This document shows, piece after piece, positions 2,317 through 59,178 of a stretch of 64,000 bases of DNA. Origin of the DNA: an uncultured Pseudomonadales bacterium (lineage in GTDB: Bacteria; Patescibacteriota; Microgenomatia; UBA1400; UBA12108); the NCBI GenBank assembly GCA_964507925.1, contig CAZDRB010000001.1:15072-79071 (forward strand), in the 5' to 3' direction. A program made the translations under genes and the position numbers. How positions within the stretch are numbered: position 1 is the stretch's first letter; each line of letters begins with the position of its first letter. The notes beneath the pieces are model-generated. The model searched no databases. It worked only from the letters and a program-made list of their open reading frames with translations, and was not told the origin of the DNA.

Positions 2317-2336
2317 GCAGAAAGTATAGCATGCGC

Positions 2337-2966
2337 CTAGAGTTTTTGATTCACAAACTCGAGAAGTTCGCGATTGGATTGGCTGTAGTCGCTTGAGTCG
2401 TAAAAATACGTTTGCCAACCAGCTGATTTGACTCCATCAAGATTGTCCTGCTTGTTATCGATAAAAAGGATTTCTTCTGCGCGTACCCCGGCGCGGTCTG
2501 TAGCGATCTGGTAAATCTCAGGAAATGGTTTTTTTACTTTCTCGACACTACTGTCCACAATTACATCCCATGATATAGAAGGCAAAAGTTGTGCACTCCT
2601 GATTTCTGATAGCATCCCCGGATACATGTCCGTCAATAGTCCGATTCTTGCCCTGGATTTCGCATATTCGACAATATCCCAGATTCCCTTGTTTTGCTCG
2701 AAATGATTAACAAAATAGTTAAGGAATTTAAAATTTGGAGGAATTGTTAACTCTAGTTGAGTTGAAATTATTTGCAACATTTTTTCTGCGTCAATTTTAC
2801 CTGTTACAAGTTGATTATTGTGATCGCGAAAAATTGACTCAAATTTTATTGCAGAGTCTCCAGTTGCTCCTAACTCGGCTTTTAATATCTCCCATTTATC
2901 AGTCTCTGAAAAATCTTTGATCAATACGCCGCCGACATCGAAAAAGACAAAGGAAATCTTGCTCAT
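2337..2966 (-). CDS. HAD-superfamily hydrolase (haloacid dehalogenase-like phosphatase)
   Basis: N-terminal FFDVGGVL (DxG nucleophile motif) and C-terminal FIDNKQDNLDGVKSAGW (HAD motif IV-like). 209 aa. Confidence 0.6.
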   Translation of the reverse strand: MSKISFVFFDVGGVLIKDFSETDKWEILKAELGATGDSAIKFESIFRDHNNQLVTGKIDAEKMLQIISTQLELTIPPNFKFLNYFVNHFEQNKGIWDIVEYAKSRARIGLLTDMYPGMLSEIRSAQLLPSISWDVIVDSSVEKVKKPFPEIYQIATDRAGVRAEEILFIDNKQDNLDGVKSAGWQTYFYDSSDYSQSNRELLEFVNQKL

Positions 2967-4210: not shown

Positions 4211-4238
4211 ATTATTTCTCCTTTGATACTAATATTGA

Positions 4239-4874
4239 TTATAGTGCATGTTGGGATAGATTGGTTAAACATTCTTTTAGATGCTCAGTATAGTTGAGTA
4301 CCAGAACCCTTGCTTCCCTATTTTTTACTTCAATTATCGTAACTGCGGCAGGGTCAATCCTGAGTGACCAAAACCTATCTGGACTCATGTTAAGAACAGA
4401 CATCAAGATGACTCGGATCACGTTGTCATGAGTTGTGACCGCGATGTCTCCACCATCTTGCATTAGTTCGGAAAAGCGGTTGAGCACGCGACTCTCAAGG
4501 TCCTCAAAAGATTCCCCTCCCGGGAAAACTACTTTCTCCGGATCATTGTTCCAGGTGCGCAGGGTATCTCCCCATTTAGCTTGTATCTCTAGCTTTGATT
4601 TTCCTTCCCATTCCCCGTGATTGGATTCGATTATCTGTTGATCCAATACTACCCGCGCACCAGTCGCCAAGCCGATTTGTTCGGCAGTTTTTTTGGTACG
4701 AATGAGTGGGCTCGTGTATATTTTTTCAAGATTTTTGCCTGAGAAATATTGCCCCAAAGCATGCACTTGCTGAACTCCAAGTGGCGATAGATCTGTATTG
4801 TAAGTTTGCCCTTGATAAATTCCTTGGGTATTGGCAATCGATTCGCCGTGACGAATCAAGTATATTTTGGCCAT
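4239..4874 (-). CDS. Histidine phosphatase family protein (phosphoglycerate mutase-like / CobC-like)
   Basis: N-terminal IYLIRHGESIANTQG (RHG catalytic motif) and a later TTHDNVIRV His. 211 aa. Confidence 0.8.
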   Translation of the reverse strand: MAKIYLIRHGESIANTQGIYQGQTYNTDLSPLGVQQVHALGQYFSGKNLEKIYTSPLIRTKKTAEQIGLATGARVVLDQQIIESNHGEWEGKSKLEIQAKWGDTLRTWNNDPEKVVFPGGESFEDLESRVLNRFSELMQDGGDIAVTTHDNVIRVILMSVLNMSPDRFWSLRIDPAAVTIIEVKNREARVLVLNYTEHLKECLTNLSQHAL

Positions 4875-4880
4875 AAAAAA

Positions 4881-4912
4881 ACCTCCTACATGCTCACGGC
4901 CGTTTAGGAGGT
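4881..4912 (-). promoter_or_regulatory. Hairpin ACCUCCUA-16nt-UAGGAGGU followed by U6 and then the AUG of the phosphatase gene: terminator-like stem whose 3' arm is the Shine-Dalgarno
   Basis: Minus-strand transcript reads ACCUCCUAAACGGCCGUGAGCAUGUAGGAGGUUUUUUUAUG. The AGGAGG sits 7 nt before the start codon and pairs with the upstream CCUCCU. Confidence 0.4.
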
Positions 4913-5014
4913 GCCACCTTGTGCGATACTTGATTAAACTGCTATTACGGGCTTACCCGTTCCGGTTGCGACACCGGACAGCTTGTTTAGTGGAAAGCTA
5001 AACTCAGACGCCTT

Positions 5015-5497
5015 TTATTTAATTTTGTTTAGTTTACCATGTTTTTTTATCAGGTCAAATCCCTCTTCGACTGCAGGGAGCGTGAGTGGGAGGCAATCGA
5101 GCTCTTTGGCCTCGTCGAGAGTGAACCAGCCGCACTCAGATGTTTCCCAATCTGGGTCTTGTGTTAGATCTGGCACTTGATCTCCGATCTCGACTAGATA
5201 AGTAATCAAGATAACCTGGGTGTCCATTTTTTCGTCTGATTCGTCGGCGTACCAAATACTAGTTTTGACAATCGGATAAGGATGGATAATGCTCGCCTTG
5301 ACTCGCAGCTCCTCCCACATCTCACGCCTAACTCCCTCTTCCATCGTCTCGCCAAAGTCAAGCGCTCCTCCTGCAATTTGCCATTTGTTGTGCCAAGCAG
5401 GATTGTCAGGTGAGTGCCTTTTGGTGAGTAAGACTTTTTGGCCATCAGTTGAGACTGGCAGACCTAGGGCCGCGACGATGATTTTTTGTTTGCTCAT
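5015..5497 (-). CDS. NUDIX hydrolase
   Basis: Nudix box GGALDFGETMEEGVRREMWEELRV. Start taken at MSKQKIIVAALG (ATG at 5497), giving an ATGA overlap with the upstream HD gene stop; the track ORF extends further 5'. Confidence 0.8.
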   Translation of the reverse strand: MSKQKIIVAALGLPVSTDGQKVLLTKRHSPDNPAWHNKWQIAGGALDFGETMEEGVRREMWEELRVKASIIHPYPIVKTSIWYADESDEKMDTQVILITYLVEIGDQVPDLTQDPDWETSECGWFTLDEAKELDCLPLTLPAVEEGFDLIKKHGKLNKIK

Positions 5498-6048
5498 AGA
5501 CCAAGATCCTCGGCAATCGACTGCATAGCGGCGAGAACTGTCGGAACATGCTCCTCCCACAGGTCAACTCCGAGCTCGCGAGCCCCCTGCTCTACTTCTT
5601 GTCGATTTACTCCCTGCGCAAAGCTCTTGTCTTTCCATTTTTTCTTGATACTTTTGACTTCGACGTCCGCAATTTTTTTACTTGGTCGGACAAGTGCAGT
5701 TGTCGTGATCAGTCCTGTAATTTCGTCGCAAGCAAAGAGAGCTTTTTCCATGAGAGTGTCGCGAGATACTCCGGTACGAGGAGCGTGTGACTGGATCGCA
5801 CGTATAATTTCCTCGTCGACCCCGCGCTCTCGGAGGATTGGGGCGCCTTTTGCAGGATGCCCATCTAGGTCAGGATGGATCTCCCAGTCAAAATCGTGTA
5901 GGAGACCGGTCACGCGATATTTTTCTTCGTCTTCGCCAAATTTTTTGGCATAGGCTACCATCGCCGCCTCGACTGCAAGCATGTGGCGGACTAGATTCTC
6001 GTTTTTGACAAATTCGCGAACAATTTTTAGCGCGTCATCACGATTCAT
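5494..6048 (-). CDS. HD-domain phosphohydrolase (HDIG/YqeK-like)
   Basis: RHMLAVE ... GLLHDFD motifs (H..HD). 184 aa. Confidence 0.7.
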   Translation of the reverse strand: MNRDDALKIVREFVKNENLVRHMLAVEAAMVAYAKKFGEDEEKYRVTGLLHDFDWEIHPDLDGHPAKGAPILRERGVDEEIIRAIQSHAPRTGVSRDTLMEKALFACDEITGLITTTALVRPSKKIADVEVKSIKKKWKDKSFAQGVNRQEVEQGARELGVDLWEEHVPTVLAAMQSIAEDLGL

Positions 6049-6440
6049 ATTTCCTCCGGTATAAAAAATTCTGTTTGAATATTGTCAGGGTCTCTAAATG
6101 CGATATAAGGATATTTCCCAGCAAATTTTTCTATTCCTATTGTTGGAACTTTCATTTCTCTTAACCTATGTTCCAACAATTTAAGATCGGTCATAGATTT
6201 TACATGAAAGGCAATATGATCTAGGCCGATGCGTTTTTCGTCAAATCTATCTTTTGCAAGTTCTTGCCATTGCACAAACCAACAGGGAATTCCGACCGAT
6301 AGGAGACTGAAAGAGTTTGTATCATCCATCTTTATTTTGAGCTGAAATAATTTTTCGTAAAACGATCTAGTGACAGAGATATCGCTCACAGTGAGTGTGG
6401 TGTGCGCTATCCCGTCGAAAGTTAAGTTGTCGTCCTGCAT
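6045..6440 (-). CDS. VOC/glyoxalase-bleomycin resistance family protein
   Basis: HTTLTVSDISVTRSFYEKLF ... GLDHIAFHV, typical glyoxalase-fold metal-binding pattern. Start moved to MQDDNLTF (ATG at 6440); the 5' extension in the track lacks similarity. Confidence 0.6.
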   Translation of the reverse strand: MQDDNLTFDGIAHTTLTVSDISVTRSFYEKLFQLKIKMDDTNSFSLLSVGIPCWFVQWQELAKDRFDEKRIGLDHIAFHVKSMTDLKLLEHRLREMKVPTIGIEKFAGKYPYIAFRDPDNIQTEFFIPEEI

Positions 6441-6480
6441 AGTGATTTCCTTATACTTAAATACTGTATAGTATTTTAGT

Positions 6481-6948
6481 TTATTTGTTTGGGGTTCTAT
6501 CTTTGGAGAATAGTGTAGCATGTCGAGAGCGTTTTCGGAGCGGCTTGTCCAGTCTGTCGATGAGTGCCTCGAGAGCAAAATAACTGGGATATCTGTTCTT
6601 AAGGTTATATAAATCATTCGACTTTTTGAGTTTTTGCTCCTCTTGATGAAGTTTTTTTACAACCGATATTACTTCTGGATAATCTTCAAGGTGGGTGCTA
6701 ATCTTGGCAATCGTTGGATCGGTTACTCTCGTGACGTTACGAATGGTGCGATAATCATAACCCTCGGTCAGCATCTTGGCTATTTGAACTCTTTTGGCAA
6801 GCATTATGATTTCTGTCCGAGAAAGAAGGGCCTTGAGCAATCCCTCCATTTCGTTCTTGGTATCTACGAGTGAAAAAGCTCTCCAAAGATTACCAATAAA
6901 CCAATCGAGGATATTTCTTTTTACTTTGAACTTACTTACTTTTGTCAT
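6481..6948 (-). CDS. TrpR-like DNA-binding protein, YerC/YecD family
   Basis: EIIMLAKRVQIAKMLTEGYDYRTIRNVTRVTDPTIAKIS resembles the B. subtilis YerC core (EIQSLAQRLVVAQML..G.TY..I...TGAS.ATISR). Confidence 0.6.
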   Translation of the reverse strand: MTKVSKFKVKRNILDWFIGNLWRAFSLVDTKNEMEGLLKALLSRTEIIMLAKRVQIAKMLTEGYDYRTIRNVTRVTDPTIAKISTHLEDYPEVISVVKKLHQEEQKLKKSNDLYNLKNRYPSYFALEALIDRLDKPLRKRSRHATLFSKDRTPNK

Positions 6949-7026
6949 TTTTTTATACTTAATTACTATAAAGTATTTTAGTATAAAGAACTGATAGTTG
7001 GTAAATAATTACTATAAACTGGATGA

Positions 7027-7806
7027 CTATAATGGGTTGGGGACGTCGATAAATTCCACTTCGAGGTTATCTTTGAAATGGGCTTTGAGTTTTTTACCTA
7101 GTTCTTGCACCCCGAATACTTCGGTCGCGTAGTGACCGCAGAGAAAATAGCTGATCCCTTCTTCCTGCATGGCGTGAAGTCTAGATTCCGAAGATTCTCC
7201 TGATATATAGAGCTCGACACCTTTTGCTTTCATTTCCTCGATATTAGCCTGATAAGGTTTACCTGCTCCTGAGACTATACCAATGGTTTGGACCTTGTCA
7301 GCCCCAGCTTTGATCGCGAGAACGTCGTGAGAAAAAATCTTGGCGCATTTTTCTGAGAGATCATTAAGATCAGTTGGCTTTGGTAATTTGGCGACAAAGC
7401 CCCATTCGTCATAGAGTGTGTCAATAATCTTAGCTCCTAAGAGCTTGGCAATTGTGGCGTTGTTGCCAAATTCTTTTTGGGCATCAAGCGCGTAGTGATA
7501 GTCAGCAATAGTTAGATCATTTTTAATAATCAAAGACAATCTCTCTTGACTACTTTTAGAGTATCGTGAACCTACGGTGCGAGTGTCAAAACCGTGGTGA
7601 AAAATACAGTACTGTGCTTGTGCATTGATTGCCTCTCGCAAAAAATCACTATTAAGACTTACTCCTAGTGCGACTTTCTTGACCTCCATCGATCCATGGA
7701 ATTGAATGCCATTAGCCGCATACTCATCAACTTTTCTTGCCTTGGCCAAGAAATCTTGACCGATAGTATTCTCGATAAAAGTAGTAAGCTCGTCACGTAA
7801 GACCAT
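7027..7806 (-). CDS. Nif3-family dinuclear metal-centre protein (GTP cyclohydrolase 1 type 2 homolog)
   Basis: YCIFHHGFD (cf. Nif3 THHP metal site) and C-terminal FLCGHYATEVFG (Nif3 GHYxSE motif). Start at MVLRDELTTF; overlaps the lysS 3' end. Confidence 0.65.
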   Translation of the reverse strand: MVLRDELTTFIENTIGQDFLAKARKVDEYAANGIQFHGSMEVKKVALGVSLNSDFLREAINAQAQYCIFHHGFDTRTVGSRYSKSSQERLSLIIKNDLTIADYHYALDAQKEFGNNATIAKLLGAKIIDTLYDEWGFVAKLPKPTDLNDLSEKCAKIFSHDVLAIKAGADKVQTIGIVSGAGKPYQANIEEMKAKGVELYISGESSESRLHAMQEEGISYFLCGHYATEVFGVQELGKKLKAHFKDNLEVEFIDVPNPL

Positions 7807-9295
7807 AAATTTCCTTTGTGAGCTTGGAAACATGTCTTTTCATCTGTGGGAATAGTGTTCCTTCGCGGGCAGTGACGTTTTCCAAAAACCAAAATACACG
7901 CTCGCTATGCCCGTATCCACTAGTTGGTGGCATGCCGTATTCGAGCATCTCAACATAATCTATATCTAACATCTGCGCTTCGTCGTCTCCAGCGTCACGG
8001 GCGGACTGTTGTTCCTGGAAGCGTGCAAGTTGCTCAGCCGGATCATTGAGCTCGCTATAACCATTGCCTAACTCTGATCCCGCAATAATCACATGAAAGC
8101 GCTCGGTCAGTTCAGGATTTTCGGACTTGGACTTTGCAAGTGGGGACATAAACTTGGGTTCGTTGACAAGAAATGCCGGCCCGGCAATGTCCTTGCGGAT
8201 TATTTTCCAGAGATTGTCGATGAGTCGCGGCTTACCGACCTTGCCGTCTAACTTGACCTTGTATTTATGAAGAACTTTGACCATCTTACTCTCGTCATCG
8301 CTAAAAATATCGATCCCGAGTTTATCCAAGATTAAAGTTCTATAATCTAGCTCTTCCCATTCCTTGGCTAGGTCAAAGGAATGCTCTCCACGCGTAAACT
8401 TGGTGGTGCCATATACTTTTTTGGCAACATGACGAAACATGTTTTTTACGAGCTCCATGTTTTGGCGATAGTCGGCATAAGCCCAGTACCACTCTAGTTG
8501 ATAAAATTCTTGGAGGTGCTCGTCGTCTATACCCTCGTTGCGAAAATTGGGAGCTAGCGTATAGATTTTTTCAAATCCGCCGCCAATTAATCTTTTTTGA
8601 TATAGCTCGGTCGAGATACGCATATAAAATTTTTCGTCGAGGGCGTTGTGATAAGTCTCAAAAGGCCGCGCGTCTGCTCCACCTGTCACGTGCTCGAGTA
8701 CCGGCGTCTCTATCTCTAGGAATCCATTTTGCGCCATATACTCGCGCGAAACTGCCCAGAACTTGGCTTTTCTTTCAAATAGTGCACGTCTGCCCTCACT
8801 CATCACCAAGTCTAGATAGCGACGACGAAAGATCGTGTCCGGGTCTTTGAGCCCCTCCCAGCTGTCAGGCAAAGGGCGGATCGATTTTGAGAGTAGCTTG
8901 AGCTCTTTGACGTCCAGTGAGACCGCGCCAGTTTTACTTTTGCAGACCACGCCCATTGCTTGGACAAAGTCACCGACATCAATCAGGCTAAGCTCGGGAA
9001 ACCCGAGATTACCTGTTTTTTTGCTAGTTGGTGAGAGCAAGCTCTCCCTCAACAGGAGCTGAATTTTGCCGGATTGATCTTCTAGGTCACCAAACGCTAG
9101 CTTGCCGTGCTTGCGAAGAGCGCGGAGTCTGCCTGCCAAGGTTATTTCTTTTCCGTCGTACTTATCAAATCCATCTACAATCGCGCCATTTGAAAGATCT
9201 TTTTGCGACTGAGCGGGGTAGGGAGAGATACCGAGTTCGACCAACTTTTTGAGCTTCCCGATCCGCTCATTTCTGATTTCTTCTAGTCTAGACAT
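7793..9295 (-). CDS. lysS: Lysyl-tRNA synthetase (class II)
   Basis: 500 aa. N-terminal OB-fold, FRNEGIDDEHLQEFYQLEWYWAY (motif 2), C-terminal GMPPTSGYGHSERVFWFL (motif 3). Confidence 0.9.
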   Translation of the reverse strand: MSRLEEIRNERIGKLKKLVELGISPYPAQSQKDLSNGAIVDGFDKYDGKEITLAGRLRALRKHGKLAFGDLEDQSGKIQLLLRESLLSPTSKKTGNLGFPELSLIDVGDFVQAMGVVCKSKTGAVSLDVKELKLLSKSIRPLPDSWEGLKDPDTIFRRRYLDLVMSEGRRALFERKAKFWAVSREYMAQNGFLEIETPVLEHVTGGADARPFETYHNALDEKFYMRISTELYQKRLIGGGFEKIYTLAPNFRNEGIDDEHLQEFYQLEWYWAYADYRQNMELVKNMFRHVAKKVYGTTKFTRGEHSFDLAKEWEELDYRTLILDKLGIDIFSDDESKMVKVLHKYKVKLDGKVGKPRLIDNLWKIIRKDIAGPAFLVNEPKFMSPLAKSKSENPELTERFHVIIAGSELGNGYSELNDPAEQLARFQEQQSARDAGDDEAQMLDIDYVEMLEYGMPPTSGYGHSERVFWFLENVTAREGTLFPQMKRHVSKLTKEIYGLT

Positions 9296-12643: not shown

Positions 12644-13309
12644 TCACCAGTCAATTGATTGTTGCCCGTGAGCCTCGAGATATGAGTTGCACTGGGAAAA
12701 TGGTTTGGAGCCAAAAAATCCTGAATAGGCGGAGAAAGGCGAGGGATGAGGAGACTTGATTACGAGGTGTTTGGACTCATCGATCACGCTGCCCTTTTTT
12801 TGGGCATATGCTCCCCAAAGAATAAAGACTAGATTTTCTTTTTGCTCGGACAAGGACCTGATCACTGCGTCGGTAAAGCGCTCCCAGCCGATGTTCTGGT
12901 GGGAACCGGGAGAACTTTTTTTGACTGTGAGCGTCGCATTGAGAAGGAGTACACCTTGAGTTGCCCACGACTGGAGATCTCCTCCTGTAACTCTAGATTT
13001 ACGCCCGAGATCGGACTCGATTTCTTTGTAGATATTTTGGAGTGAGGGAGGGAGCTTGACACCTGAGCTGACCGCAAAAGCTAGGCCATTGGCTTGTCCC
13101 TCACCATGGTAGGGATCTTGGCCGATGATCACGACCTTGACCTGCTCGAAGGGCGTGAGCTCAAAGGCGCGAAAGATAAATTTTGGCGGTGGGTAAACGG
13201 TTGATGCGAGATATTTTGACTTGACGAACTCAGCTAGTTTTTGAAAATAATCCTGATTAAACTCTGACTCTAGTACCTTTTTCCAGCTTGGCTCGATTTT
13301 GACATTCAT
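12644..13309 (-). CDS. ung: Uracil-DNA glycosylase (family 1)
   Basis: GQDPYHGEGQANGLAF and HPSPFSAYSGFFG motifs. Start at MNVKIEPSWKK (ATG at 13309). Confidence 0.85.
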   Translation of the reverse strand: MNVKIEPSWKKVLESEFNQDYFQKLAEFVKSKYLASTVYPPPKFIFRAFELTPFEQVKVVIIGQDPYHGEGQANGLAFAVSSGVKLPPSLQNIYKEIESDLGRKSRVTGGDLQSWATQGVLLLNATLTVKKSSPGSHQNIGWERFTDAVIRSLSEQKENLVFILWGAYAQKKGSVIDESKHLVIKSPHPSPFSAYSGFFGSKPFSQCNSYLEAHGQQSIDW

Positions 13310-13374
13310 GTTGTATATGTTATCACTGAGGATCCATGGTTGACAGTATATATATCTCATAGTATTATCTCAAC

Positions 13375-14184
13375 ATGAAATTAGGATTCATCGAAACATT
13401 AGGAGGCTTATATAACAATAGCCTTGAACCATTCTCTCTTAAAAACAAGTTGGACACTTTCCAAAGTTTATATGGAGTTAGGCCGTCGCCATTTTTGATA
13501 GACAACCCAGTAAGAGAAATTTCCTTAACCGAGCTTTCCCCTTCAATCCACGCGTTTGTAGAAAGTTTTACAGATTCAGGAGAATTTAATCGAAGCTTAA
13601 CAGACTATTTGAATAGATCTGAAGCTGGTTCTCATCTCAATCCCAGAGAGTTTTCTTTAGTTGCTCATTCTGGACCTAGCACTAGTATTTCCCCACCGTA
13701 TGACACATTCTTTATGGATGGAGCGTCTGGCTTAATACTCACTTATGGTAAACCTAAAGATCGAAATTCTGTAATTGCATCGGTAGATCCACTATTCAGG
13801 GTAAATCAATCTAATAGAATGTCCCAAACTAATCATGACTACAAAGACATTGTTATTAATCAGTTACAAGGACCACTGAAAAATTTTTCGAACCCAGAGT
13901 TTAGAAAAATTTTTACTAGCTTTAGATGGGAACATTTACTTGTAGATTGTCTTGTGTCCTGGGCCTGGTACGCTGGTTTACAAAGATTATTACTTTTACC
14001 ATCATATTATAATTATTATGGCAAAGTGAAAAGAAACGAAAATGGAAGCGCAATTATGAGATATGATGTGACAGCGGAGCGACGTGGATTTAGACGTACT
14101 AAAGAAACCGAAGCATACTCAATATTGTTTGATCGAGGCATGGTGATAGAGGCCTACAAACAAATGTTTGGCCAACAATCCTGA
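13375..14184 (+). CDS. Hypothetical protein (269 aa), Ser/Asn-rich, no recognisable domain
   Basis: Long ORF with the -10 hexamer TAGTAT at 13356-13361 upstream; island cargo. Confidence 0.5.
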   Translation: MKLGFIETLGGLYNNSLEPFSLKNKLDTFQSLYGVRPSPFLIDNPVREISLTELSPSIHAFVESFTDSGEFNRSLTDYLNRSEAGSHLNPREFSLVAHSGPSTSISPPYDTFFMDGASGLILTYGKPKDRNSVIASVDPLFRVNQSNRMSQTNHDYKDIVINQLQGPLKNFSNPEFRKIFTSFRWEHLLVDCLVSWAWYAGLQRLLLLPSYYNYYGKVKRNENGSAIMRYDVTAERRGFRRTKETEAYSILFDRGMVIEAYKQMFGQQS

Positions 14185-14277
14185 GTCCTTGTTTGTAAAT
14201 TAGGCTTATACCATCTCAATTGTAGCCATCAGATTTATTATTGATATCTGAATTCATGCATGCGATATAATGAATTT

Positions 14278-14814
14278 ATGGCAGATTACATTGTTCTTCA
14301 TGGTAGTGGTGGCATAGACATGTGGATACCATGGTTAGAAAAAGAACTGAAAAGTAAAGCTTCTGATGTATGGGTACCGACACTTCCTGATCCTGGTGAG
14401 CCAGATCTCAAGAAGCAGCTTCCGTTTTTGCTGGAGAGCAACAAGATAGGTCCAGAGTCAACTATTATTGGACACTCCGCATCTTGTCCGCTGATTTTGA
14501 GCTTACTAGAAAACTTGGATATAACTGTAAAAAAAGTTGTCCTCGTTGCTGGATATAATAAGCCATTGATAAATAGTGTGTCTGATCCAATTTTGCAAGA
14601 TAGTTACAACTGGGAGAAGATAAAGAAAGCTGCTAAAGAGTTTGTTTTTGTAGTATCAGACAATGATCCGTGGGGGTGTGGAGAGGAGATGAATAGACCG
14701 ATATTCGAACAAGTAGGTGGCACTTTCGTCATTGTTCATGACGGAGGACATTTTGGATCTAATACTTTTAAGAAACCGCTGTACGAATTCCCTCTTTTAC
14801 TGGGCTTGATTTAG
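14278..14814 (+). CDS. RBBP9/YdeN-like alpha/beta serine hydrolase
   Basis: IVLHGSGG ... IIGHSASCP (GHSxS nucleophile elbow) ... VSDNDPWG ... HDGGHF (Ser-Asp-His triad order of PF06821). Start at MADYIV (ATG 14278); TTGATA at 14241, TATAAT at 14266, 6 nt, then ATG. Confidence 0.6.
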   Translation: MADYIVLHGSGGIDMWIPWLEKELKSKASDVWVPTLPDPGEPDLKKQLPFLLESNKIGPESTIIGHSASCPLILSLLENLDITVKKVVLVAGYNKPLINSVSDPILQDSYNWEKIKKAAKEFVFVVSDNDPWGCGEEMNRPIFEQVGGTFVIVHDGGHFGSNTFKKPLYEFPLLLGLI

Positions 14815-15291
14815 TTGCTTATCTATTCCCCCCTCTACCTCAGTCCCAAAGGTGACAAGGAGCTTGTCGCTGGGATTAATTGTTTGAGTGAGGGCGTTGG
14901 GGTTCTCGACTCCGTTCACGAAAAATCTCAATGTCCCGCTATCGCCTGTGCAAAATGTTTGGCCAGTACCCGTGGTTAGACACTCATTCGTCAGCTTCAT
15001 CGGGAGAGTAGAGAAAAAGTCGCCCCACGTAGTTCCCTGCTTTTTGACTTTGATCAGGCTCGGATTATCTGCCTCTATATATACGTCGGGGGAGAGATTG
15101 TGATATTTGGGATCGCTAAAAAACCTTAACGTTTGGTGAGTATAGATAGTAAATGATGCCTGTATGTCTAACTCTGAAATGATTACTTCTTTCGGGCTTG
15201 AACCTGAGGACATGTCTTGAGTTTTTTTGCTGGTGAAATATGTGAGCCCTGCGATAGCAAGAGCGAAGATGAGGAAAATTTTGAGTTTCAT
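14797..15291 (-). CDS. Secreted protein of unknown function; paralog of the 32527..33036 product
   Basis: Signal peptide MKLKIFLIFALAIAGLTYF. Shared blocks with 32527..33036: ASFTIYTHQT / AGFRVYVDD, KKQGTTWGDFFSTL / HRSGATWGDLFKNI, FFVNGVENPNA / GYVDGELVENV. Confidence 0.5.
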   Translation of the reverse strand: MKLKIFLIFALAIAGLTYFTSKKTQDMSSGSSPKEVIISELDIQASFTIYTHQTLRFFSDPKYHNLSPDVYIEADNPSLIKVKKQGTTWGDFFSTLPMKLTNECLTTGTGQTFCTGDSGTLRFFVNGVENPNALTQTINPSDKLLVTFGTEVEGGIDKQLNQAQ

Positions 15292-15315: not shown

Positions 15316-15594
15316 ATGGATACAAAATCGAATGAGCTACTTTTAACTGAGATCCGCAAGCTGGCTGAGGCTGTGACCAAGCTCAACAAGCACCAATCTG
15401 CCTGGTACTCATTTGGGCGTGGGATTATGTCAGCTCTGGGGTATTTTGTAGGAGCAGCAATATTGGTTGGCGTCATCGTATATCTTTTGCAGAGAGTAGA
15501 TCTCGTTCCGATTATTGGGGAATGGCTTGGGGGAGTGATCAACGAGACAATCAAGAACTCTATGGGCAATCAATTAATGTTTCCGAATAAGTGA
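15316..15594 (+). CDS. Small membrane protein (92 aa), hypothetical
   Basis: One TM helix (GIMSALGYFVGAAILVGVIVYLL). Its stop codon is the first nucleotides of repeat copy 1. Confidence 0.4.
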   Translation: MDTKSNELLLTEIRKLAEAVTKLNKHQSAWYSFGRGIMSALGYFVGAAILVGVIVYLLQRVDLVPIIGEWLGGVINETIKNSMGNQLMFPNK

Positions 15595-15697
15595 CCCTAG
15601 ACCTTCCGCATCCAAACCGCCTTATCACACATCTGATTGATCTATATAACCTATTCGCTCCAGATATGAGAATATCATCGGTAGCTATATCCTTCTA
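15591..15697 (+). repeat. 107-nt direct repeat, copy 1 (gtgaccctagaccttccgcatccaaaccg ... ggtagctatatccttcta)
   Basis: Hand alignment to 16128..16234: equal length, about two-thirds identical ungapped, with strongly conserved 5' (first 30 nt about 26/30) and 3' ends. Confidence 0.6.
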
Positions 15698-15758
15698 ATG
15701 TTTCAAATCATAATTTCATAGTGACCTTGAGATAGATACTCCCCTAGTCTGGTAAAAT

Positions 15759-16097
15759 GTGGAAATGAGTCAAGAGGTAAGAACTGATATGGAAGATGCC
15801 TGGGCATCAGCCATAGCTCAGCAAGCAGAGGAAGTAATTGAAGAAGGTGCAATTGTAGTAGTGCAGGATGATCCATATACTTGGAGATATAGATCTGACC
15901 ATCCTTTACATAAACACCCTCATATATTTAGGGATGGCCAAGAAGAAGGTGAGCCAAACCTACTGATTAGAGATGTAGATGGAAGTTTTAATGTTGTAAC
16001 ATTACTAAACATTACTTTAGCAATGACTAGACACACAAATAGAGATGTCCACTTAGTGAACGATGAAAATGACGTATTAAATTTACTGAACGGTTAA
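15759..16097 (+). CDS. Hypothetical acidic protein (112 aa) between the two 107-nt repeats
   Basis: ORF with GTG at 15759 or ATG at 15765 (MSQEV). TAAAAT at 15753, 6 nt, then the ATG at 15765. No domain recognised. Confidence 0.4.
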   Translation: MEMSQEVRTDMEDAWASAIAQQAEEVIEEGAIVVVQDDPYTWRYRSDHPLHKHPHIFRDGQEEGEPNLLIRDVDGSFNVVTLLNITLAMTRHTNRDVHLVNDENDVLNLLNG

Positions 16098-16127
16098 TTG
16101 CAAAAATACGTTGATATATAGGTTAAT

Positions 16128-16234
16128 GTGACCCTAGAACTTCCAGATCCAAACCGTATTATATCTAATCTGCTAGAGATTTTCGATCTGTTCAACCCAT
16201 TCATAAAATCACCAGGGTTGGCTATATCCTCTTA
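16128..16234 (+). repeat. 107-nt direct repeat, copy 2 (gtgaccctagaacttccagatccaaaccg ... ggttggctatatcctctta)
   Basis: See copy 1. Begins 30 nt after the stop of the 15759..16097 ORF. Confidence 0.6.
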
Positions 16235-16245
16235 GATTATCAAAC

Positions 16246-16539
16246 CTATTTATCCTTGCACAACGCTAAACACACCCCATTGTTGTTGTAACACCACGGA
16301 TCGCCCTTGCTATATGGACCCTTGCTTGCAGTTCGAGTTCCCAAATAGTGTCTATCATCACAGCTGCCGTTTTTCGGAGGTACTCCCATTTTAATACACT
16401 CATCGTAACAAAACTGATAGTTCGTCTTTGATTTCGGACCTCTAACTGAGTAAATAAGGCCGGATAAAGCCAAGATTAAAAGAGCGCCAGTAGCAACTAC
16501 CTTAATCACATTGTCAAAATTTAACTTAATAGAGCTCAT
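16246..16539 (-). CDS. Small cysteine-rich secreted/membrane-anchored protein (97 aa, 6 Cys)
   Basis: N-terminal signal anchor (VVATGALLILALSGLIY), then QFCYDECIKMGVPPKNGSCDDRHYLGTRTASKGPYSKGDPWCYNNNGVCLALC with 6 Cys in a ~50 aa module. Confidence 0.5.
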   Translation of the reverse strand: MSSIKLNFDNVIKVVATGALLILALSGLIYSVRGPKSKTNYQFCYDECIKMGVPPKNGSCDDRHYLGTRTASKGPYSKGDPWCYNNNGVCLALCKDK

Positions 16540-16569
16540 GGTGTAAGTATATACCTCCTCAACGATGGA

Positions 16570-17118
16570 TTATCCTAATAAGTCAAATGGATGTGATGGG
16601 AGTTCCATGCTTCCATACATTCGCTCGAGCTCAGCATACATTTTGTGGAAGAGGCGCTCACCCAAATCAAGACACATTTGTTCAATAATTGGAAAAGAGC
16701 TAATTTCAAATTTGGAGTTTGTAACCTGTATCCCCAATCCTTTTGTTGGTGGATATCCAGGCATATTTGTTACTCCAGGAGGTACGATCTCAACACGTCG
16801 ATACATACTATCGCTATGAGCTACAGTTTGGTCTCTATGGGCAATGATTTGGTAGTGAAGTGTTTGATATCTCAGGTTTGTATATCCTGGCCATGTACTA
16901 TCAAGCGGTCTACCATATGGGCGATTAGACTTAAACGCACGTGAGTATGCGCTTATTATATTGTCCTGAAGGTGTAAAAAACCCTCATCTTTGATGGACT
17001 TAACTGTTCTTAAAAATAATCTAGTTGTGTATAGCGCCTCAGCAATGTCTTGATGAGCAATGGCCAGCTTGTATAGAGAAATTCTTTCTTCCTCTGATAC
17101 ACCAGGATGACTAATCAT
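16570..17118 (-). CDS. Hypothetical protein (182 aa), no recognisable domain
   Basis: Clean ORF divergently arranged with the 587 aa ORF. Island cargo. Confidence 0.5.
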   Translation of the reverse strand: MISHPGVSEEERISLYKLAIAHQDIAEALYTTRLFLRTVKSIKDEGFLHLQDNIISAYSRAFKSNRPYGRPLDSTWPGYTNLRYQTLHYQIIAHRDQTVAHSDSMYRRVEIVPPGVTNMPGYPPTKGLGIQVTNSKFEISSFPIIEQMCLDLGERLFHKMYAELERMYGSMELPSHPFDLLG

Positions 17119-17189
17119 ATTTGTACTATTCTACAACTGATGAAAACAAAGTCATCTTTACCCAATGCTTGGCATATAATTAGCTTTAT

Positions 17190-18953
17190 ATGTCAAAGGC
17201 TATAGATTTATTTCACTCTGTTAGCATGCAGAGCCGCATGTCGCCTGAGAACAGCTCTGCGATAAAAACACTACAACAATCAGCAGAAGCTTTTGAGTTT
17301 GAAGGCAATTATTTCTCGGCTGGTTATACCTACTCAACAATAGTGATGTCTCTTATGGGGCGGCATGTGAACACATACCCATACATCAATAAAGCTGATG
17401 AGTGTTACGACAAGTGCCTATCAAATCCTCACAACCATGTGCTTGAAAAAATAGCATGTCTCAAAAAGAAAATTAACGTGTTATCCGAGTACTCATGGAT
17501 GTTTAGGCACACTGAAAAAGAAATGTTGGACATAAAAACTGAACAAACGAAATTAGCAAGTCAGATTGAGACAATAATATCGAAGGAGTTTTCGGGTACC
17601 CCAGATGCAGGTAAGTATCTTGTTCATGGATTCCAGATTAATACAAATCTGGATGGTAAATGGTGGCAAACTTTCACAAATTGGGAAACTGATGCTGACT
17701 CAGAGCAGTTTGGTGGAGGAACAATAACTATAAATATAGCCTCAGCGTTTACCCTTAGAGTTGCTCTGGTTGACTACGCCGGTGCAAACGAAATCGCAGA
17801 TAAATATCCTGATTTTTTTATATCACCCGGACTAAAAGGATGGAAGGAGGCCGTTAAAGGTTTTTGTTTTCCAGAACAGGCAGACTTCTACTTTGAAAAA
17901 GCATCAACAATTTTTAACAGTGATAATAAGCCGCCAGAGGTTTTGAGCAATCACGGAGGACACTGGTCATCAAAAAATTGGGAGTTGTGGGGCACTTATT
18001 TTCGGTCTAGAGCAGAACTAGCACTAGCACGTAAAGATAAAGTTCATGTTAGGGAACATATCTTTCGTGCTTCAGAGATAATTGGCAAAGAGACCTTACA
18101 TTGGATTGACGAAGGTGTATCGAGATATCGCATCCTGGTTAAAGCGCTTGCAATACTACTTTCAGATAACTCAGAAATTTCCTTGAGTGAAGTAAGAAAA
18201 ATGTTTGAGTACGAGACGTATTTAAGCCACGCTTCTCACTACGATCATTTAATCGACGAGTTTATCTCGGGTACCAATTATGCATTGGATAACTTTAGAA
18301 AACATCCAGAGAGAGAGTTTACAGAAGGTAATCTTGCAAGAGCACTTACCGCCTTTGACAAAATTCCGATTATGGACAGTGGTTTAGTTGATGCAATACG
18401 ACCTCGCCTAGAGGAGCGTGCCCATGATGCGATATTTGGAGTACACAAAACCTGGATAGCTCGTACACTCGAAACAATATCAGATGAAGATGTTTTGCGT
18501 AAAGTAGTTCTTAAGTTAGTTCAGGCTTCGTTGCCAATTTACGCACAAATTATCCACGGCCCAACTGAACTAGGTACTGACATAGTTGCACTAGTAAAAA
18601 TTGACGAAGTGCTAATACTTAAACAATATCAGGTGAAATGCGGCAACATTACTAAGGCGAAATGGCCTGGTATAAAAGAGCAGTTAGAGGAAATATTTGA
18701 TGTAAAAGATAGACCATCTCTACCAGAAAATAGTAAAAACGCAAAAAAAATAGGCATATTGATATACAACGGTCATCCTAACCCCATAACTTCTCCGGTA
18801 ATAAACAGTTGGTTTGAAGTACAAAAAACAGAAAGGGATAGGCAATATGAGCATATACATCTAGATGCTTTTGTTAATTGGATCATCGAAGATAAGCTAT
18901 TGACCGAGTTTAGACAGGTCCTAACACAGCTCAATGTCCCCATTACAGAGTAG
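17190..18953 (+). CDS. Hypothetical protein (587 aa), no recognisable domain (no Walker, HNH, HEPN or PLD motif seen)
   Basis: Long uninterrupted ORF with TATAAT at 17175, about 9 nt before the ATG. Largest cargo gene of the island. Confidence 0.6.
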   Translation: MSKAIDLFHSVSMQSRMSPENSSAIKTLQQSAEAFEFEGNYFSAGYTYSTIVMSLMGRHVNTYPYINKADECYDKCLSNPHNHVLEKIACLKKKINVLSEYSWMFRHTEKEMLDIKTEQTKLASQIETIISKEFSGTPDAGKYLVHGFQINTNLDGKWWQTFTNWETDADSEQFGGGTITINIASAFTLRVALVDYAGANEIADKYPDFFISPGLKGWKEAVKGFCFPEQADFYFEKASTIFNSDNKPPEVLSNHGGHWSSKNWELWGTYFRSRAELALARKDKVHVREHIFRASEIIGKETLHWIDEGVSRYRILVKALAILLSDNSEISLSEVRKMFEYETYLSHASHYDHLIDEFISGTNYALDNFRKHPEREFTEGNLARALTAFDKIPIMDSGLVDAIRPRLEERAHDAIFGVHKTWIARTLETISDEDVLRKVVLKLVQASLPIYAQIIHGPTELGTDIVALVKIDEVLILKQYQVKCGNITKAKWPGIKEQLEEIFDVKDRPSLPENSKNAKKIGILIYNGHPNPITSPVINSWFEVQKTERDRQYEHIHLDAFVNWIIEDKLLTEFRQVLTQLNVPITE

Positions 18954-19019
18954 GATCTCCTTAGATTTGTGTTCTATTAGACTCTACGTATACTATTAGA
19001 AAACAGGGAAATAACAGCG

Positions 19020-19304
19020 ATGGCAAAATCGAGCACCAGTTATCAATCAGGCCAAACAGGAAATCCTAAAGGCAGGCCTGCAAAGGGCTACTCAATAACA
19101 GAGATGTTTAGGAGTATGCTAGATAGCGACAGTGAGATGCGAGAAAAACTAGCTAAAGTGATCCTGCGAAAGGCATTAGATGGTGATATGGCTGCCTGTC
19201 GCCTTATCTGGTCATACATGGATGGGTTGCCGACAAACAAAATATCAATTACTGAACTCCCAAGACCACTCCCCCTTCTTGGCGGAGTCACATCTGAAAA
19301 CTAA
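19020..19304 (+). CDS. DUF5681-like phage/integrative-element protein
   Basis: N-terminal QSGQTGNPKGRPAKG matches the conserved SGNPxGRPKG signature of DUF5681 proteins from phages and integrative elements. Confidence 0.55.
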   Translation: MAKSSTSYQSGQTGNPKGRPAKGYSITEMFRSMLDSDSEMREKLAKVILRKALDGDMAACRLIWSYMDGLPTNKISITELPRPLPLLGGVTSEN

Positions 19305-19513
19305 TCACGGATTTTTCTGTTGTCTTTTTCTTGCTTAACACTATTACGACCATATAGGGTCAGAAATAGAACTGTACCAATACACGCCACAACTAAACCT
19401 AGAAATAGAAAAGAAAACACACTGAGTGCTAGATTGATCATGCTTACCTCCTTACCTGGATAATAACATAAATATATACCAGCAGTAAGTCGACCAAGAG
19501 TAAGGATTTTCAT
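19301..19513 (-). CDS. Small membrane protein (70 aa), hypothetical
   Basis: Single TM (LALSVFSFLFLGLVVACIGTVLFLTLY). Overlaps the DUF5681 stop by 4 nt. Confidence 0.35.
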   Translation of the reverse strand: MKILTLGRLTAGIYLCYYPGKEVSMINLALSVFSFLFLGLVVACIGTVLFLTLYGRNSVKQEKDNRKIRD

Positions 19514-19521
19514 AACCTTAA

Positions 19522-19737
19522 GTGGTTATGAGTAAATCAATATATCTTCAAGTCGGTAAGCGGATACAAGAGCTACGTCGAAAGAAGGGTGTGACTCAAG
19601 AAAAGCTCGCATTAGATGCTGGTTTGAACCGCGCCTACATAGGCTACATCGAGCGAGGAGAACGTAGTCCCTCGGTACTCACTCTCTTTAGGATAGCCAG
19701 ATCACTCAAAATTAAACTTTACGAGCTATTTATCTAA
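19522..19737 (+). CDS. XRE-family helix-turn-helix transcriptional regulator (Cro/CI-type)
   Basis: QELRRKKGVTQEKLALDAGLNRAYIGYIERGERSPSVLTLFRIARSL is a textbook HTH_3/XRE fold. Confidence 0.8.
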   Translation: MVMSKSIYLQVGKRIQELRRKKGVTQEKLALDAGLNRAYIGYIERGERSPSVLTLFRIARSLKIKLYELFI

Positions 19738-19866: not shown

Positions 19867-20052
19867 GTTGTATGACAATAAAACAAGCAAGAAAAATACT
19901 TGGAAAAATGGCAGACGGGATAGCTGATGAGGTTATCCAAGCCGACATTGAAGTGGCTGAGTTTTTTACATCCATTTTTTTCGATCACATACGTTACGGT
20001 GGACACGATGGGGTGGTGCATCCACAACAAACGTGCCATAATTAGGCACTAT

Positions 20053-21582
20053 ATGACACGTAGAGCTGTTATTTACATACGGGTATCCGATCAGTCACAA
20101 ATCGAAAACAATAGCCTAGAAAGCCAGCTGAAGACTTGTGACGCATTTGCGAAGCAGAGTGGTTACGAAGTCATCAAGATATATCGTGAAGAGGGTAAAT
20201 CTGCCAAGGAGGTTTTTACAAGAGAGAAACTCAAAGAGTTAATGTCGTTTTGTTTGGTAAAAGCAAATCACATAGATGCGATGATCGTATACAAATACGA
20301 TCGATTCAGTCGAAACTCTGCCGATGGCCAAGCAGCGATTGCACTATTGGCTAAGGCTGGTGTGGATGTGATATCTGCCACCGAGGGAGCAGAAGATAAT
20401 CCAAGTGGAAGAGCCATGCGTACGATTTTACTAGCTTTAGCACAGCTAGATAACGAGATAAAGGGCGAGCGAGTACATGACAATATGCAGGCCGTCTTTC
20501 GAAAAGGGTTCTGGCCATTTAAATGCCCAGTCGGATACAAGAGATTTTCAAGAAACAAAGAGGAAAACATGGGGATTCCTCCTTTAGTTGATAAGCACTT
20601 GGGACCCATTGTGACAGAGATGTTCAAGAACGCCGCAAGCGGTATCTACTCTAAGGAACAACTAGCCAGGATGATGAACAGCCAAGGTTTTGGTGACCAT
20701 TATCGTGCCAAATCTACACACAAGATTGTCGATAGCATTTTACGCAAGACTTTTTACTATGGTGAGATGTATGGACCAAAGTGGAAGGAACGGGTATGGG
20801 GTAAGCATGAGCCATTAACCGATAAAGAAACTTGGGAGTTAGCATACAACAGAGTCATATTAAAAAAGAAAAACTATGTCTACCAGGACGAAGCAAAATA
20901 TCCCCTTAAAGGGCATCTACGTTGTAGTGAGTGTGGTGCGCCGCTCACCACGTCACCATCTACTGGACGTAGTAAAAAGTACTACTACTATGAGTGTCGC
21001 AGCAAGTCATGCAAAAAGATCAGGACGCTTGCTGACGACGCGCATAAGCAGTTTGAGTTGATATTAGAACAAATCAAGCCTTCCCCTAGAGTACTACGCC
21101 TTTTCGATAGCACTGTCTTTTCTACATGGGATAAGGAAATCGCTCGCTCCGAAGCGTCACTCGAAAAAGCAGATCAACACCTTTTGACGCTCAAAAATGA
21201 CATTACAAATATACGTAAGTCTGTAGATAATGGACTATTAACGATGGAGGAGGGAAAAGAACAGATTGAGATAGTTAGGCAAAACATCGCCGTTGCTGAG
21301 ATTGAGAAGGCAGATATTAAGTGTAGTCATTATGATAAGGAAGTTGTGAGAAACTTTACTCGCTCATTTTTAGAAAATATTGATGGACTATGGCGAGACA
21401 TGAACTTATCAAAGAAGCAGGCTTTTCTCGCTCTCATTTTTCCAAACGGCATCTTATGTGATAACAACCGAAAAATCCGAACCGATCAATTGTCCCCATC
21501 CTTCGAGCTAATTGTGGCTCTTAGTGAGCAAAAAGGTGAAAATGTGACCCCACAGGGAATCGAACCCTGGTTAGCAGAATGA
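20053..21582 (+). CDS. Large serine recombinase (resolvase-type catalytic domain + recombinase domain + zinc ribbon)
   Basis: AVIYIRVSDQSQ (catalytic Ser region), YKYDRFSRN, recombinase domain, CSECGAPL ... YECRSKSC zinc ribbon, C-terminal coiled coil. Start at MTRRAVIYIRVSD (ATG 20053). The last 38 nt overlap tRNA-Glu on the opposite strand. Confidence 0.85.
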   Translation: MTRRAVIYIRVSDQSQIENNSLESQLKTCDAFAKQSGYEVIKIYREEGKSAKEVFTREKLKELMSFCLVKANHIDAMIVYKYDRFSRNSADGQAAIALLAKAGVDVISATEGAEDNPSGRAMRTILLALAQLDNEIKGERVHDNMQAVFRKGFWPFKCPVGYKRFSRNKEENMGIPPLVDKHLGPIVTEMFKNAASGIYSKEQLARMMNSQGFGDHYRAKSTHKIVDSILRKTFYYGEMYGPKWKERVWGKHEPLTDKETWELAYNRVILKKKNYVYQDEAKYPLKGHLRCSECGAPLTTSPSTGRSKKYYYYECRSKSCKKIRTLADDAHKQFELILEQIKPSPRVLRLFDSTVFSTWDKEIARSEASLEKADQHLLTLKNDITNIRKSVDNGLLTMEEGKEQIEIVRQNIAVAEIEKADIKCSHYDKEVVRNFTRSFLENIDGLWRDMNLSKKQAFLALIFPNGILCDNNRKIRTDQLSPSFELIVALSEQKGENVTPQGIEPWLAE

Positions 21583-21616
21583 GAATCTGCTGTCCTAGCC
21601 ACTAGACGATGGGGCC
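21545..21616 (-). tRNA. tRNA-Glu (anticodon CUC)
   Basis: Hand-folded: acceptor GGCCCCA/TGGGGTC, D-arm GTCT-AGTGGCTAG-GGAC, anticodon stem GCAGA/TCTGC with loop TTCTCAT (U33, CUC, A37), T-arm CAGGG-TTCGATT-CCCTG, discriminator A. No encoded CCA. Confidence 0.85.
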
Positions 21617-29551: not shown

Positions 29552-30250
29552 TTATTTTATCACAACTTCTGAAGGATCTAGCTTGCGGAATTTGCCTGGC
29601 TTTAGGTCGCCAAGCTCCCACGGACCAAGCTTGATTCGAATAAGGCGCATGACTGGGTAGCCAACTGCTTCGCACATTTTGCGAATTTGCCTGTTTCGAC
29701 CTTCGTGGATTGTGATATTGAACCAAGTGTTTTTGGGTTGGCTCTCGGTGATCTCGACTACGGCTTTCGCGGTTTTTTTGCCTTCGATCGTAACTCCTTG
29801 TTCTAGGTACCCTACTGTTTTGGCTGTCATCACCCCTTTGACGAGAACGTGATAGGTCTTTTTGATCTCGAACTTTGGGTGAGTCAGGCGGTAGGCCAGA
29901 TCGCCGTCATTGGTCAGGAGCATCAGCCCCTCTGAATCATAGTCTAGGCGACCGACCGGATAGAGGCGATGACCTCCGGGCACAAGCGAGGTGGCGGTTT
30001 TTCTGCCCTCAGGATCGCTGACAGCTGAGACGACGTGACGAGGCTTGTTTAAGAGATAATAAACCATAGTTTCGTCTAGTTTAACTGTCTTTCCGTCGAC
30101 TGCGACCTGAGCTGTATCGCTCTCAATAACTTGGCCGACAGTGGCTATTTTGCCGTTGACCGTGACTTTGCCCTCCTCAACCATTTCTTCGGCTGTCCTG
30201 CGCGACGCGACTCCAGAGTGAGCGAGATATTTGTGAATCCTCATTTTCAT
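29552..30250 (-). CDS. Pseudouridine synthase, RsuA/RluB family
   Basis: N-terminal S4 domain (RIHKYLAHSGVASRR), catalytic VGRLDYDSEGLMLLTNDG. 232 aa. Confidence 0.85.
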   Translation of the reverse strand: MKMRIHKYLAHSGVASRRTAEEMVEEGKVTVNGKIATVGQVIESDTAQVAVDGKTVKLDETMVYYLLNKPRHVVSAVSDPEGRKTATSLVPGGHRLYPVGRLDYDSEGLMLLTNDGDLAYRLTHPKFEIKKTYHVLVKGVMTAKTVGYLEQGVTIEGKKTAKAVVEITESQPKNTWFNITIHEGRNRQIRKMCEAVGYPVMRLIRIKLGPWELGDLKPGKFRKLDPSEVVIK

Positions 30251-58892: not shown

Positions 58893-59178
58893 GTGCCTTG
58901 GGTAGGCTAGATGATCGCTCCGACGTAAAGTCGGAGAGGAAAGTCCAGACAGCAGTGTGCAGGGTGTCTCGACGTAAAGTCGGGAACGGGTAACCGCTAG
59001 TTAGAGCAACAGAGACTACGACTCACCCGCAAGGGAAGAGAGTGAAAAGGGCAATCCTCCCCGCTGCAACCGACGAATAGGCCGACAAAGACTGACGCAC
59101 ACCAGAGGCCTGAAGCTTGCGGGCATAGATAAATGATCATCTGCAAAACAGAATCTGGCTTATGCCTACCCAAGGCGC
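58893..59178 (+). ncRNA. rnpB: RNase P RNA (bacterial type, reduced ~285 nt)
   Basis: P1 closes with a perfect 13-bp helix: GCCTTGGGTAGGC (58895-) / GCCTACCCAAGGC (59164-59176). P4 strands GAGGAAAGTCCAGAC (cf. GAGGAAAGUCCGGGC) and ACAGAATCTGGCTTATG (cf. ACAGAACCCGGCUUA). Confidence 0.8.

Follow-up and report, generated by a model that had tools for sequence, protein, structure and literature searches.

Two divergently transcribed open reading frames (ORFs), here called gene A and gene B, lie side by side in a 64,000-nucleotide (nt) stretch of contig CAZDRB010000001.1 that is referred to as a whole as the window. Judged by their sequences both are real genes, because relatives of each exist elsewhere, and their coordinates are as given in the first-pass annotation, including the 71-nt gap between them and a TATAAT box 9 nt 5' of the ATG of gene B. 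That annotation had put forward, as a candidate reading of the pair, a two-gene module for defence or toxin immunity, which our analysis does not support. The best explanation, to which we give slightly better than an even chance, is that A and B are accessory genes of conflict or defence type, each a single-gene unit independent of the other, and that both form part of the low-GC cargo beside a serine recombinase, an XRE-type regulator and a DUF5681 protein at a tRNA-Glu gene. On the best-supported view the two lie side by side because genes of this sort cluster, and not because they are obligate partners. The pair and the 71 nt that separate the two ATG codons are arranged as follows:

16570..17118, minus strand: gene A ORF, 182 amino acids (aa), ATG start; a stand-alone four-helix protein with a HEPN-like motif, from an un-annotated family
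17190..18953, plus strand: gene B ORF, 587 aa, ATG start
17119..17189: A/B intergenic region, 71 nt, containing a back-to-back pair of -10-like boxes

The libraries searched (Pfam, NCBIfam, PADLOC, PHROGs) contain no description of either family. Hidden Markov model (HMM) searches gave no above-threshold match for A or B in Pfam-A, NCBIfam, PADLOC or PHROGs, and the PADLOC-DB v2 component models gave zero matches for either protein at E <= 1. The earlier remark that neither protein shows a HEPN motif was wrong for A, which contains an R-x5-H motif (R95-DQTVA-H101-S-D103) that its family conserves.

Distribution and arrangement of the two genes

The A family would have been overlooked by a word-indexed search alone, as an index of 5.8 billion proteins returned only A itself, versus 201 representative clusters by exhaustive HMMER search (about 200 clusters at 50% identity), of which 92 had E <= 1e-10 and nearly all were 160–220 aa in length. 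For B the same index gave seven full-length relatives with 31–37% identity, and a profile search from the B alignment added zero new members. A verdict of 'no homologues' from the index would therefore mislead, having missed the A family and approximately 50 B loci. These loci were recovered with hand-designed degenerate DNA patterns, that for A being built on fixed-spacing motifs and that for B covering its C-terminal motif (ExGxD-15 aa-[YF]QVKCG). The A pattern identified 36 genome loci in Pseudomonadota, Verrucomicrobiota, Planctomycetota, Actinomycetota, Desulfobacterota, Spirochaetota, Nitrospirota and the candidate phyla radiation (CPR), together with three viral contigs, two of which were confirmed as family members by HMM. 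The B pattern identified 50 more metagenome loci and 0 viral ones; an ORF carrying the motif was present in 47 of the 50, with the motif about 125 residues from the C-terminus, and most of these ORFs were 583–634 aa. Searches of PLSDB plasmids by tblastn gave no match for A or B.

Co-occurrence was assessed in 58 B-family loci (8 + 50) and in 36 A-family genome loci plus the three viral contigs. An A relative, sought by tblastn (E < 1–10) and with the family HMM, was found in 0/8 and 0/50 of the B-family loci. Reciprocally, a B relative was found in 0/36 A-family genome loci, and the B pattern was unmatched in the three A-pattern viral contigs and in any IMG/VR contig. No conserved neighbour was found for either family: the immediate neighbours of A-family genes are mutually dissimilar and heterogeneous in Pfam content, and those of B-family genes are conserved solely between near-identical contigs. 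Among the loci examined A therefore stands next to B in this genome alone, and the two-gene-module reading fails by the criterion, absence of co-occurrence in other genomes, that the first-pass annotation had itself named as refuting it. What can be kept of the proposed defence role is an island-borne, conflict-type function for each gene separately, to which the HEPN-like anatomy of A and the occurrence of B relatives among restriction–modification (R-M), GmrSD, HEPN, HipA, integrase and Mrr-type genes both point.

The first-pass annotation had also proposed that A and B share a divergent promoter region. The -10-like boxes are:

17175-17180, plus strand: TATAAT, -10-like box of B, ending 9 nt (tagctttat) before the ATG at 17190
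17128-17133, minus strand: TAGAAT, -10-like box of A, ending 9 nt before the ATG of A

No Shine–Dalgarno (SD)-like motif (GGAG, GAGG, AGGA, GGTG or AAGG) is present in the 19 nt upstream of either ATG. A consensus scan of positions 16100-19600 found six sigma70-like sites versus 9.7 +/- 3.5 in shuffled sequence; on the minus strand it reported ATGACT-16-TAGAAT ending 9 nt before the ATG of A, and it did not report the TATAAT of B, for which there is no acceptable -35. Across the 63 window ORFs of at least 100 aa, a TATAAT-like hexamer (at least 5/6 matching) ends 4–12 nt before the start codon in 28, versus 2.2 +/- 1.4 at random positions, and an SD-like motif was found at just 19 of 58 window ORFs. 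Leaderless or near-leaderless starts are evidently, on these sequence counts, widely used by the organism; other leaderless-type examples in the window are 14797-15291, 29552-30250, 41966-43204, 45140-45481, 51050-52477 and 57488-58867. Given that 28 of the 63 ORFs share this architecture, the A/B layout is that of two ordinary transcription units placed back-to-back with leaderless-type starts, and each gene would be transcribed from its own promoter of this kind. The TATAAT box of the proposed shared region is present, but the region is statistically not distinguishable from shuffled sequence and the same box precedes many other genes. Back-to-back promoters and adjacency are weak evidence for a module, especially where leaderless -10 boxes precede nearly half the genes.

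Gene A as a candidate HEPN protein

In an alignment of 78 A-family members Y58, H88 and H101 are invariant, and A21, D24, R60, F62, G69, R95, A100 and D103 are at least 90% conserved. The family signature is YxRPF-(31 aa)-R[N/H/D]xxxAHSD, with YxRPF at a fixed 36 residues before the motif R in 113 of 124 members and a spacing of 37 in A itself. In gene A the two parts of this signature are located at:

16810..16836, minus strand: R-x5-H-x-D motif, predicted catalytic site, codons R95–D103 (RDQTVAHSD)
16933..16947, minus strand: conserved loop between helices 2 and 3, codons Y58–F62 (YSRAF; family consensus YxRPF)

Structure prediction, one of the checks suggested in the first pass, was successful for A to the extent that AlphaFold2 (AF2) produced a confident four-helix model (predicted local distance difference test (pLDDT) 94; predicted template modelling score (pTM) 0.86), but Foldseek found no significant match for it in PDB or BFVD. 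The helices span residues 9–38, 47–60, 82–99 and 141–168, with a beta-hairpin (108–112 / 129–133) between the last two. The motif lies at the end of helix 3, R95 being inside the helix 82–99 and H101 just beyond it. The relevant section of a published HEPN survey places the ribonuclease (RNase) motif at the end of helix 3, with an insert between helices 2 and 3, and gives N, D or H as the typical residue after the R (PMC3710099). As modelled, A agrees with each point of the anatomy set out in that section: four helices, the position of the motif, a polar N/D/H residue after the R and a helix 2–3 insert.

Profile comparison pointed in the same direction below threshold. Pfam family PF18734 (HEPN_AbiU2) gave sub-threshold matches in 18 of the 78 A relatives (best E 0.0021), with no other family recurring, and the A-family consensus aligned to it with 13.1 bits (E 0.065) over residues 83–109, the motif helix, against positions 115–137 of the 193-position profile. 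This motif helix is the only stretch with a match to HEPN_AbiU2. Based on the modelled anatomy and the sub-threshold profile signal, we consider it reasonably probable that A is of HEPN type; if this assignment holds, A is a new variant, at clade level, of a well-known superfamily. We infer that A would be a small stand-alone HEPN-like metal-independent RNase. Its predicted catalytic residues are R95, H101 and D103, located where helix 3 ends, with probable assistance from Y58 and H88, both invariant, and from R60, which is nearly so. By analogy with solo Abi-type HEPN effectors, it may act by RNA cleavage in response to a trigger.

Several results weigh against this assignment. A itself has no PF18734 match and, with the consensus at 13 bits versus a gathering threshold of 26.8, is not a member of that family. 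No established HEPN family gave a significant profile or structure match for A in Pfam, PDB, BFVD or hhalign comparisons: the best Foldseek match to the A model in PDB had an E of 0.36 and nothing significant was found in BFVD, a PDB profile search with A found nothing, and hhalign of A against two Pfam-supported HEPN-clan proteins from the loci gave 0.2% each. HEPN families are known to be mutually undetectable by profile and structure tests of this kind. A solo HEPN protein without an antitoxin would need some other control, and the Pfam content of A-family neighbourhoods is mostly housekeeping with few defence genes. PADLOC searches across the 78 A relatives gave scattered single matches only, all with E > 0.01.

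The comparison with AbiU2 proteins (PF18734, AbiUii) is correspondingly mixed. A is likewise small and four-helical, with R-[N/H/D]-x3-A-H where helix 3 ends, and resembles Abi-type HEPN genes in being an accessory gene of patchy distribution. It differs in its lower score, in a 5-residue spacer that is followed by a near-invariant S-D, in the beta-hairpin between helices 3 and 4, in a YxRPF loop and an invariant H88 that lie outside the generic HEPN definition, in its lack of a Foldseek match to solved HEPN structures, and in being mostly solo with no conserved partner.

A-family genes on two IMG/VR predicted viral contigs (L110 444-971 and L111 2264-2905; HMM E 1.9e-25 and 2e-72) indicate that phages or prophages at times carry members of the family. 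The closest relative of A (52% identity), in a Candidatus Levyibacteriota CPR metagenome-assembled genome (L047 1714-2840), starts 8 nt after a gene encoding a Zn-ribbon and a DUF4145 (HEPN-clan) domain, so that this locus is a tandem of two HEPN-type genes.

The C-terminal domain of gene B and the contexts of its relatives

B is divided into two regions that differ in conservation and in how well they could be modelled:

17190..18530, plus strand: residues 1–447, TPR-like solenoid, all-helical apart from a small beta insertion at 148–183 (AF2)
18531..18953, plus strand: residues 448–587 and stop codon, highly conserved alpha/beta C-terminal domain (alignment; AF2, weak)

The AF2 model of B, built from eight sequences, has a mean pLDDT of 73. 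The helical region 1–447 was modelled well, mostly at 70–94 per 10-residue block, but the C-terminal model is weak and the Foldseek matches were not significant. The top PDB matches were all TPR-type solenoids (SPINDLY, Ski3, LGN, SNAP/Sec17 and Rap), with a best E of 0.037 and template modelling (TM) scores of at most 0.29, and B has no Pfam TPR or Sel1 match.

The C-terminal domain has 37 positions that are at least 95% identical in 40 distinct sequences. The conserved residues include E460, G462, D464, Y480-Q-V-K-C-G485, W492, N527-G-H529 and H557-L-D559, with E460, D464, Q481 and K483 invariant in the B family, and divergent B pairs share 51% identity in the C-terminal part versus 37% in the N-terminal part. 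A core homologous to that of the B domain forms the N-terminal 40–120 residues of an otherwise unrelated 529-aa protein in metagenome locus L002 (hhalign 94.6%, E 6.6e-8), which by this alignment makes the domain a portable module. Next to it in the same locus is a 537-aa protein with an N-terminal Mrr_cat match just at the Pfam threshold (21.3 bits versus 21). The two neighbours, at L002 13225-17039, are both of approximately 530 aa, with Mrr_cat in one (13225-14838) and the B-type module in the other (15450-17039), each N-terminal and restriction endonuclease-like; they belong to a co-directional array that also holds a protein kinase.

The preferred mechanistic guess, which we hold tentatively and with somewhat less than an even chance, is that the C-terminal domain of B is a divergent PD-(D/E)xK nuclease of the Mrr type (E...D...QxK). 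Compared by eye with Mrr_cat (PF04471), its elements run in the same order, from a helix to E/D-x-G-x-D where a strand begins and Q-x-K ending the next strand about 16 residues on, followed by a helix, a hydrophobic strand (GILIxNG versus GVFITTS) and 'hLD..h..hI' versus 'LVDG..L..LM'. The model puts D464 at the beginning of predicted strand 463–471 and Q481–K483 at the end of 474–482, in a part with pLDDT <50 where the motif was judged by eye. The domain also resembles Mrr_cat in being a terminal module on differing architectures, and it adjoins a bona fide Mrr_cat paralogue in L002. That paralogue aligns to B in the expected register, weakly (14%, E 0.002), through E-x-G-K-D-I, the K-containing strand and an LEE.F helix.

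Formal membership of the Mrr family was considered and rejected. Comparison of the B domain by hhalign gave 0.9% against EcoKMrr and 0.2% against a profile of 12 Mrr sequences (that of E. coli K-12 plus 11 homologues from plasmids), and with the L002 Mrr_cat paralogue added it gave 4–7.6% (P 0.01–0.005), which is not significant. These values weigh against a nuclease assignment, as do the pLDDT of <50 at residues 448–487 and 501–531 and the absence of any PADLOC match for B. Pfam likewise had no match to the isolated domain. Overall the domain is set apart from Mrr_cat by hhalign values of 0.2–14%, by HMMER searches that returned nothing, by an AF2 model of the domain that is unreliable, and by the invariant C484, N527, H529 and D559, which have no Mrr counterpart.

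We infer that B would work as a one-protein sensor-effector, in which the N-terminal solenoid (1–447) binds a protein or nucleic-acid cue and controls a C-terminal catalytic module (448–587), most likely the putative PD-(D/E)xK nuclease. In having a repeat solenoid with a conserved terminal module, an occurrence in defence islands and a C-terminal part more conserved than the rest, B is reminiscent of STAND/Avs-type sensor-effectors; it differs from these in having no nucleoside triphosphatase (NTPase; no Walker motifs, no AAA/NACHT match), in being much smaller and in showing only a moderate contrast between its N- and C-terminal parts.

Relatives of B were found in a number of loci alongside genes of defence systems. 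In L095 the B relative (5518-7302) is joined by 4-nt overlaps to two upstream genes, encoding a GmrSD-N (DUF262) protein (7802-8920) and a 168-aa HEPN protein (7299-7805) that carries ALRHKIAHG and differs in family from A; the co-oriented array (831-8920) continues with a 69-aa ORF, HsdM (2938-5379), HsdS (1763-2944) and a 311-aa ORF, whose product looks NucS-like by eye. The B relative of L002 is in an array with the Mrr_cat protein and a protein kinase, with a TIR/AAA_16/TPR (STAND-type) protein nearby, and that of L067 is beside GmrSD-N and a protein that is SIR2-like by eye. In L066 and L069 the B relative adjoins HipA, and in L003 it is near a protein with a FokI cleavage domain, QueC, a tyrosine integrase, an IS66 transposase and a DUF927 protein. 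Among 118 neighbouring ORFs from 42 B loci, the recurrent families were Phage_integrase (3), HipA (2), GmrSD_N (2) and HEPN_RiboL-PSP (2). These contexts appear typical of accessory defence genes; it counts against this reading that the context evidence is anecdotal and that some B relatives lie between housekeeping genes (ligA, purL).

Beside one such copy (L006 221-6826) is a 169-aa GATase_5 fragment that may be a duplication scar from insertion, as it shares 65% identity with a segment of the full-length purL next to it. Loci with an apparently short B and an upstream ORF had been considered as HEPN–B pairs, and proved to be full-length B genes with frameshifts. Among L078, L092, L100, L072 and related soil contigs, several B genes are split into N- and C-terminal ORFs by a frameshift or stop codon and could be pseudogenes or assembly errors, and a short B form of 336 aa recurs in Ga0318*/Ga0306926 soil contigs.

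Genomic setting, alternative readings and significance

The placing of the pair in an island, as described in the first pass, fits the low GC content at approximately 13–20 kb of the window (0.39–0.41 versus roughly 0.46–0.49 elsewhere) and the features downstream of B:

19020..19304, plus strand: DUF5681 protein (Pfam PF18932, E 3.6e-9; PHROG 26239)
19522..19737, plus strand: XRE-type helix-turn-helix (HTH) regulator (Pfam HTH_3, E 5.5e-15)
19927..21582, plus strand: large serine recombinase (Pfam Resolvase 1.7e-28, Recombinase and Zn_ribbon_recom), with the Resolvase domain starting from ORF residue 47
21544..21616, minus strand: tRNA-Glu(CTC) (ARAGORN; Rfam tRNA 60.6 bits)

DUF5681 proteins are characteristic of phages and mobile elements. 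At its 3' end the recombinase gene overlaps the tRNA-Glu gene on the opposite strand by 39 nt. This suggests that the element integrated into the tRNA and that its attachment site lies within the recombinase gene, and tRNA-Glu(CTC) is the probable integration site. A search for an attachment (att) repeat or displaced tRNA fragment delimiting the island found only chance-level matches, such as 10 nt at 16125-16134. Elsewhere in the window, the bacterial class A RNase P RNA at 58899-59176 is 278 nt long versus a 367-position model (104.5 bits; gathering threshold 100) and may be a reduced form. The aspartyl-tRNA synthetase (7793-9295) is alone in its 90%-identity cluster, the organism being poorly sampled.

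Given this setting, two other accounts of A and B have to be weighed. It is unlikely, in our estimation, that A and B both lack a role in conflict or defence, B being a repeat protein that serves as scaffold or regulator and has a conserved non-nuclease C-terminal domain and A a helical housekeeping or RNA-processing protein in which the R...H motif is coincidental or non-catalytic. Such an account would fit the lack of PADLOC matches and of any significant structure or profile link to HEPN proteins or nucleases, and it would fit the many A-family neighbours that are housekeeping genes (RNR, GcpE, ATP synthase delta, YchF) and the B relatives beside ligA or purL. It sits poorly with the patchy and rare occurrence of both families in variable regions, the position of the window copy beside a serine recombinase at a tRNA, the repeated presence of B among R-M, GmrSD, HEPN, HipA and Mrr genes and the existence of frameshifted B copies. 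It also leaves aside that the conserved polar residues of A are exactly at the HEPN active-site position and that A-family genes occur on predicted viral contigs.

Quite improbable, to our mind, is that A and B cooperate in this genome as an AbiU-like pair, with B as the nuclease-like effector and A as modulator or second effector, co-regulated from the 71-nt region, or alternatively as a toxin–immunity pair that stabilises the element. In lactococcal AbiU a large nuclease-like AbiUi, which resembles a nuclease in AF2 analysis where it was superimposed on FokI (1FOK), is combined with the HEPN protein AbiUii, which lowers resistance (PMC13064643). Here too a large protein with a putative nuclease-type domain adjoins a small HEPN-type one, the two are adjacent with back-to-back promoters, and the L095 relative of B overlaps by 4 nt a HEPN gene, albeit of another family. 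However, no similarity of B to AbiU1/AIPR, or to the AbiU models of PADLOC, was detected (Pfam, PADLOC, E <= 1), A scores below the HEPN_AbiU2 threshold, and the genes are divergent, neither co-oriented nor operonic. The families never co-occurred in the 58 B loci or the 36 A genome loci. The HEPN survey reports AbiU2 genes in operons with Sel1-repeat proteins (PMC3710099). TPR/Sel1 neighbours were present at only 1 of 112 ORFs around A-family genes, which counts against the pair.

The reading of A and B as independent accessory genes, in which any antiphage role would belong to each gene separately, is thus retained. A bolder version of it, possible but on the unlikely side, is that B represents a new single-gene defence family, combining an NTPase-less helical-repeat sensor with a portable and extremely conserved effector domain not described before (ExGxD...QVKCG...NGH...D), which may be a highly divergent PD-(D/E)xK nuclease, and that A represents a new clade of solo HEPN RNases. 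More speculatively still, B-type proteins may work with a neighbouring HEPN gene, of the A type here and of the RiboL-PSP type in L095.

The practical value of these findings is modest, as candidate defence genes of this sort are numerous and current understanding is not contradicted by anything here; they are of moderate interest to specialists in defence systems, the claim of a divergent two-gene module that drew attention to the locus being unsupported. If confirmed, two un-annotated families would join the catalogue of prokaryotic conflict genes, that of A widespread and that of B rare, joining a generic repeat scaffold to a C-terminal domain that lies outside current models.

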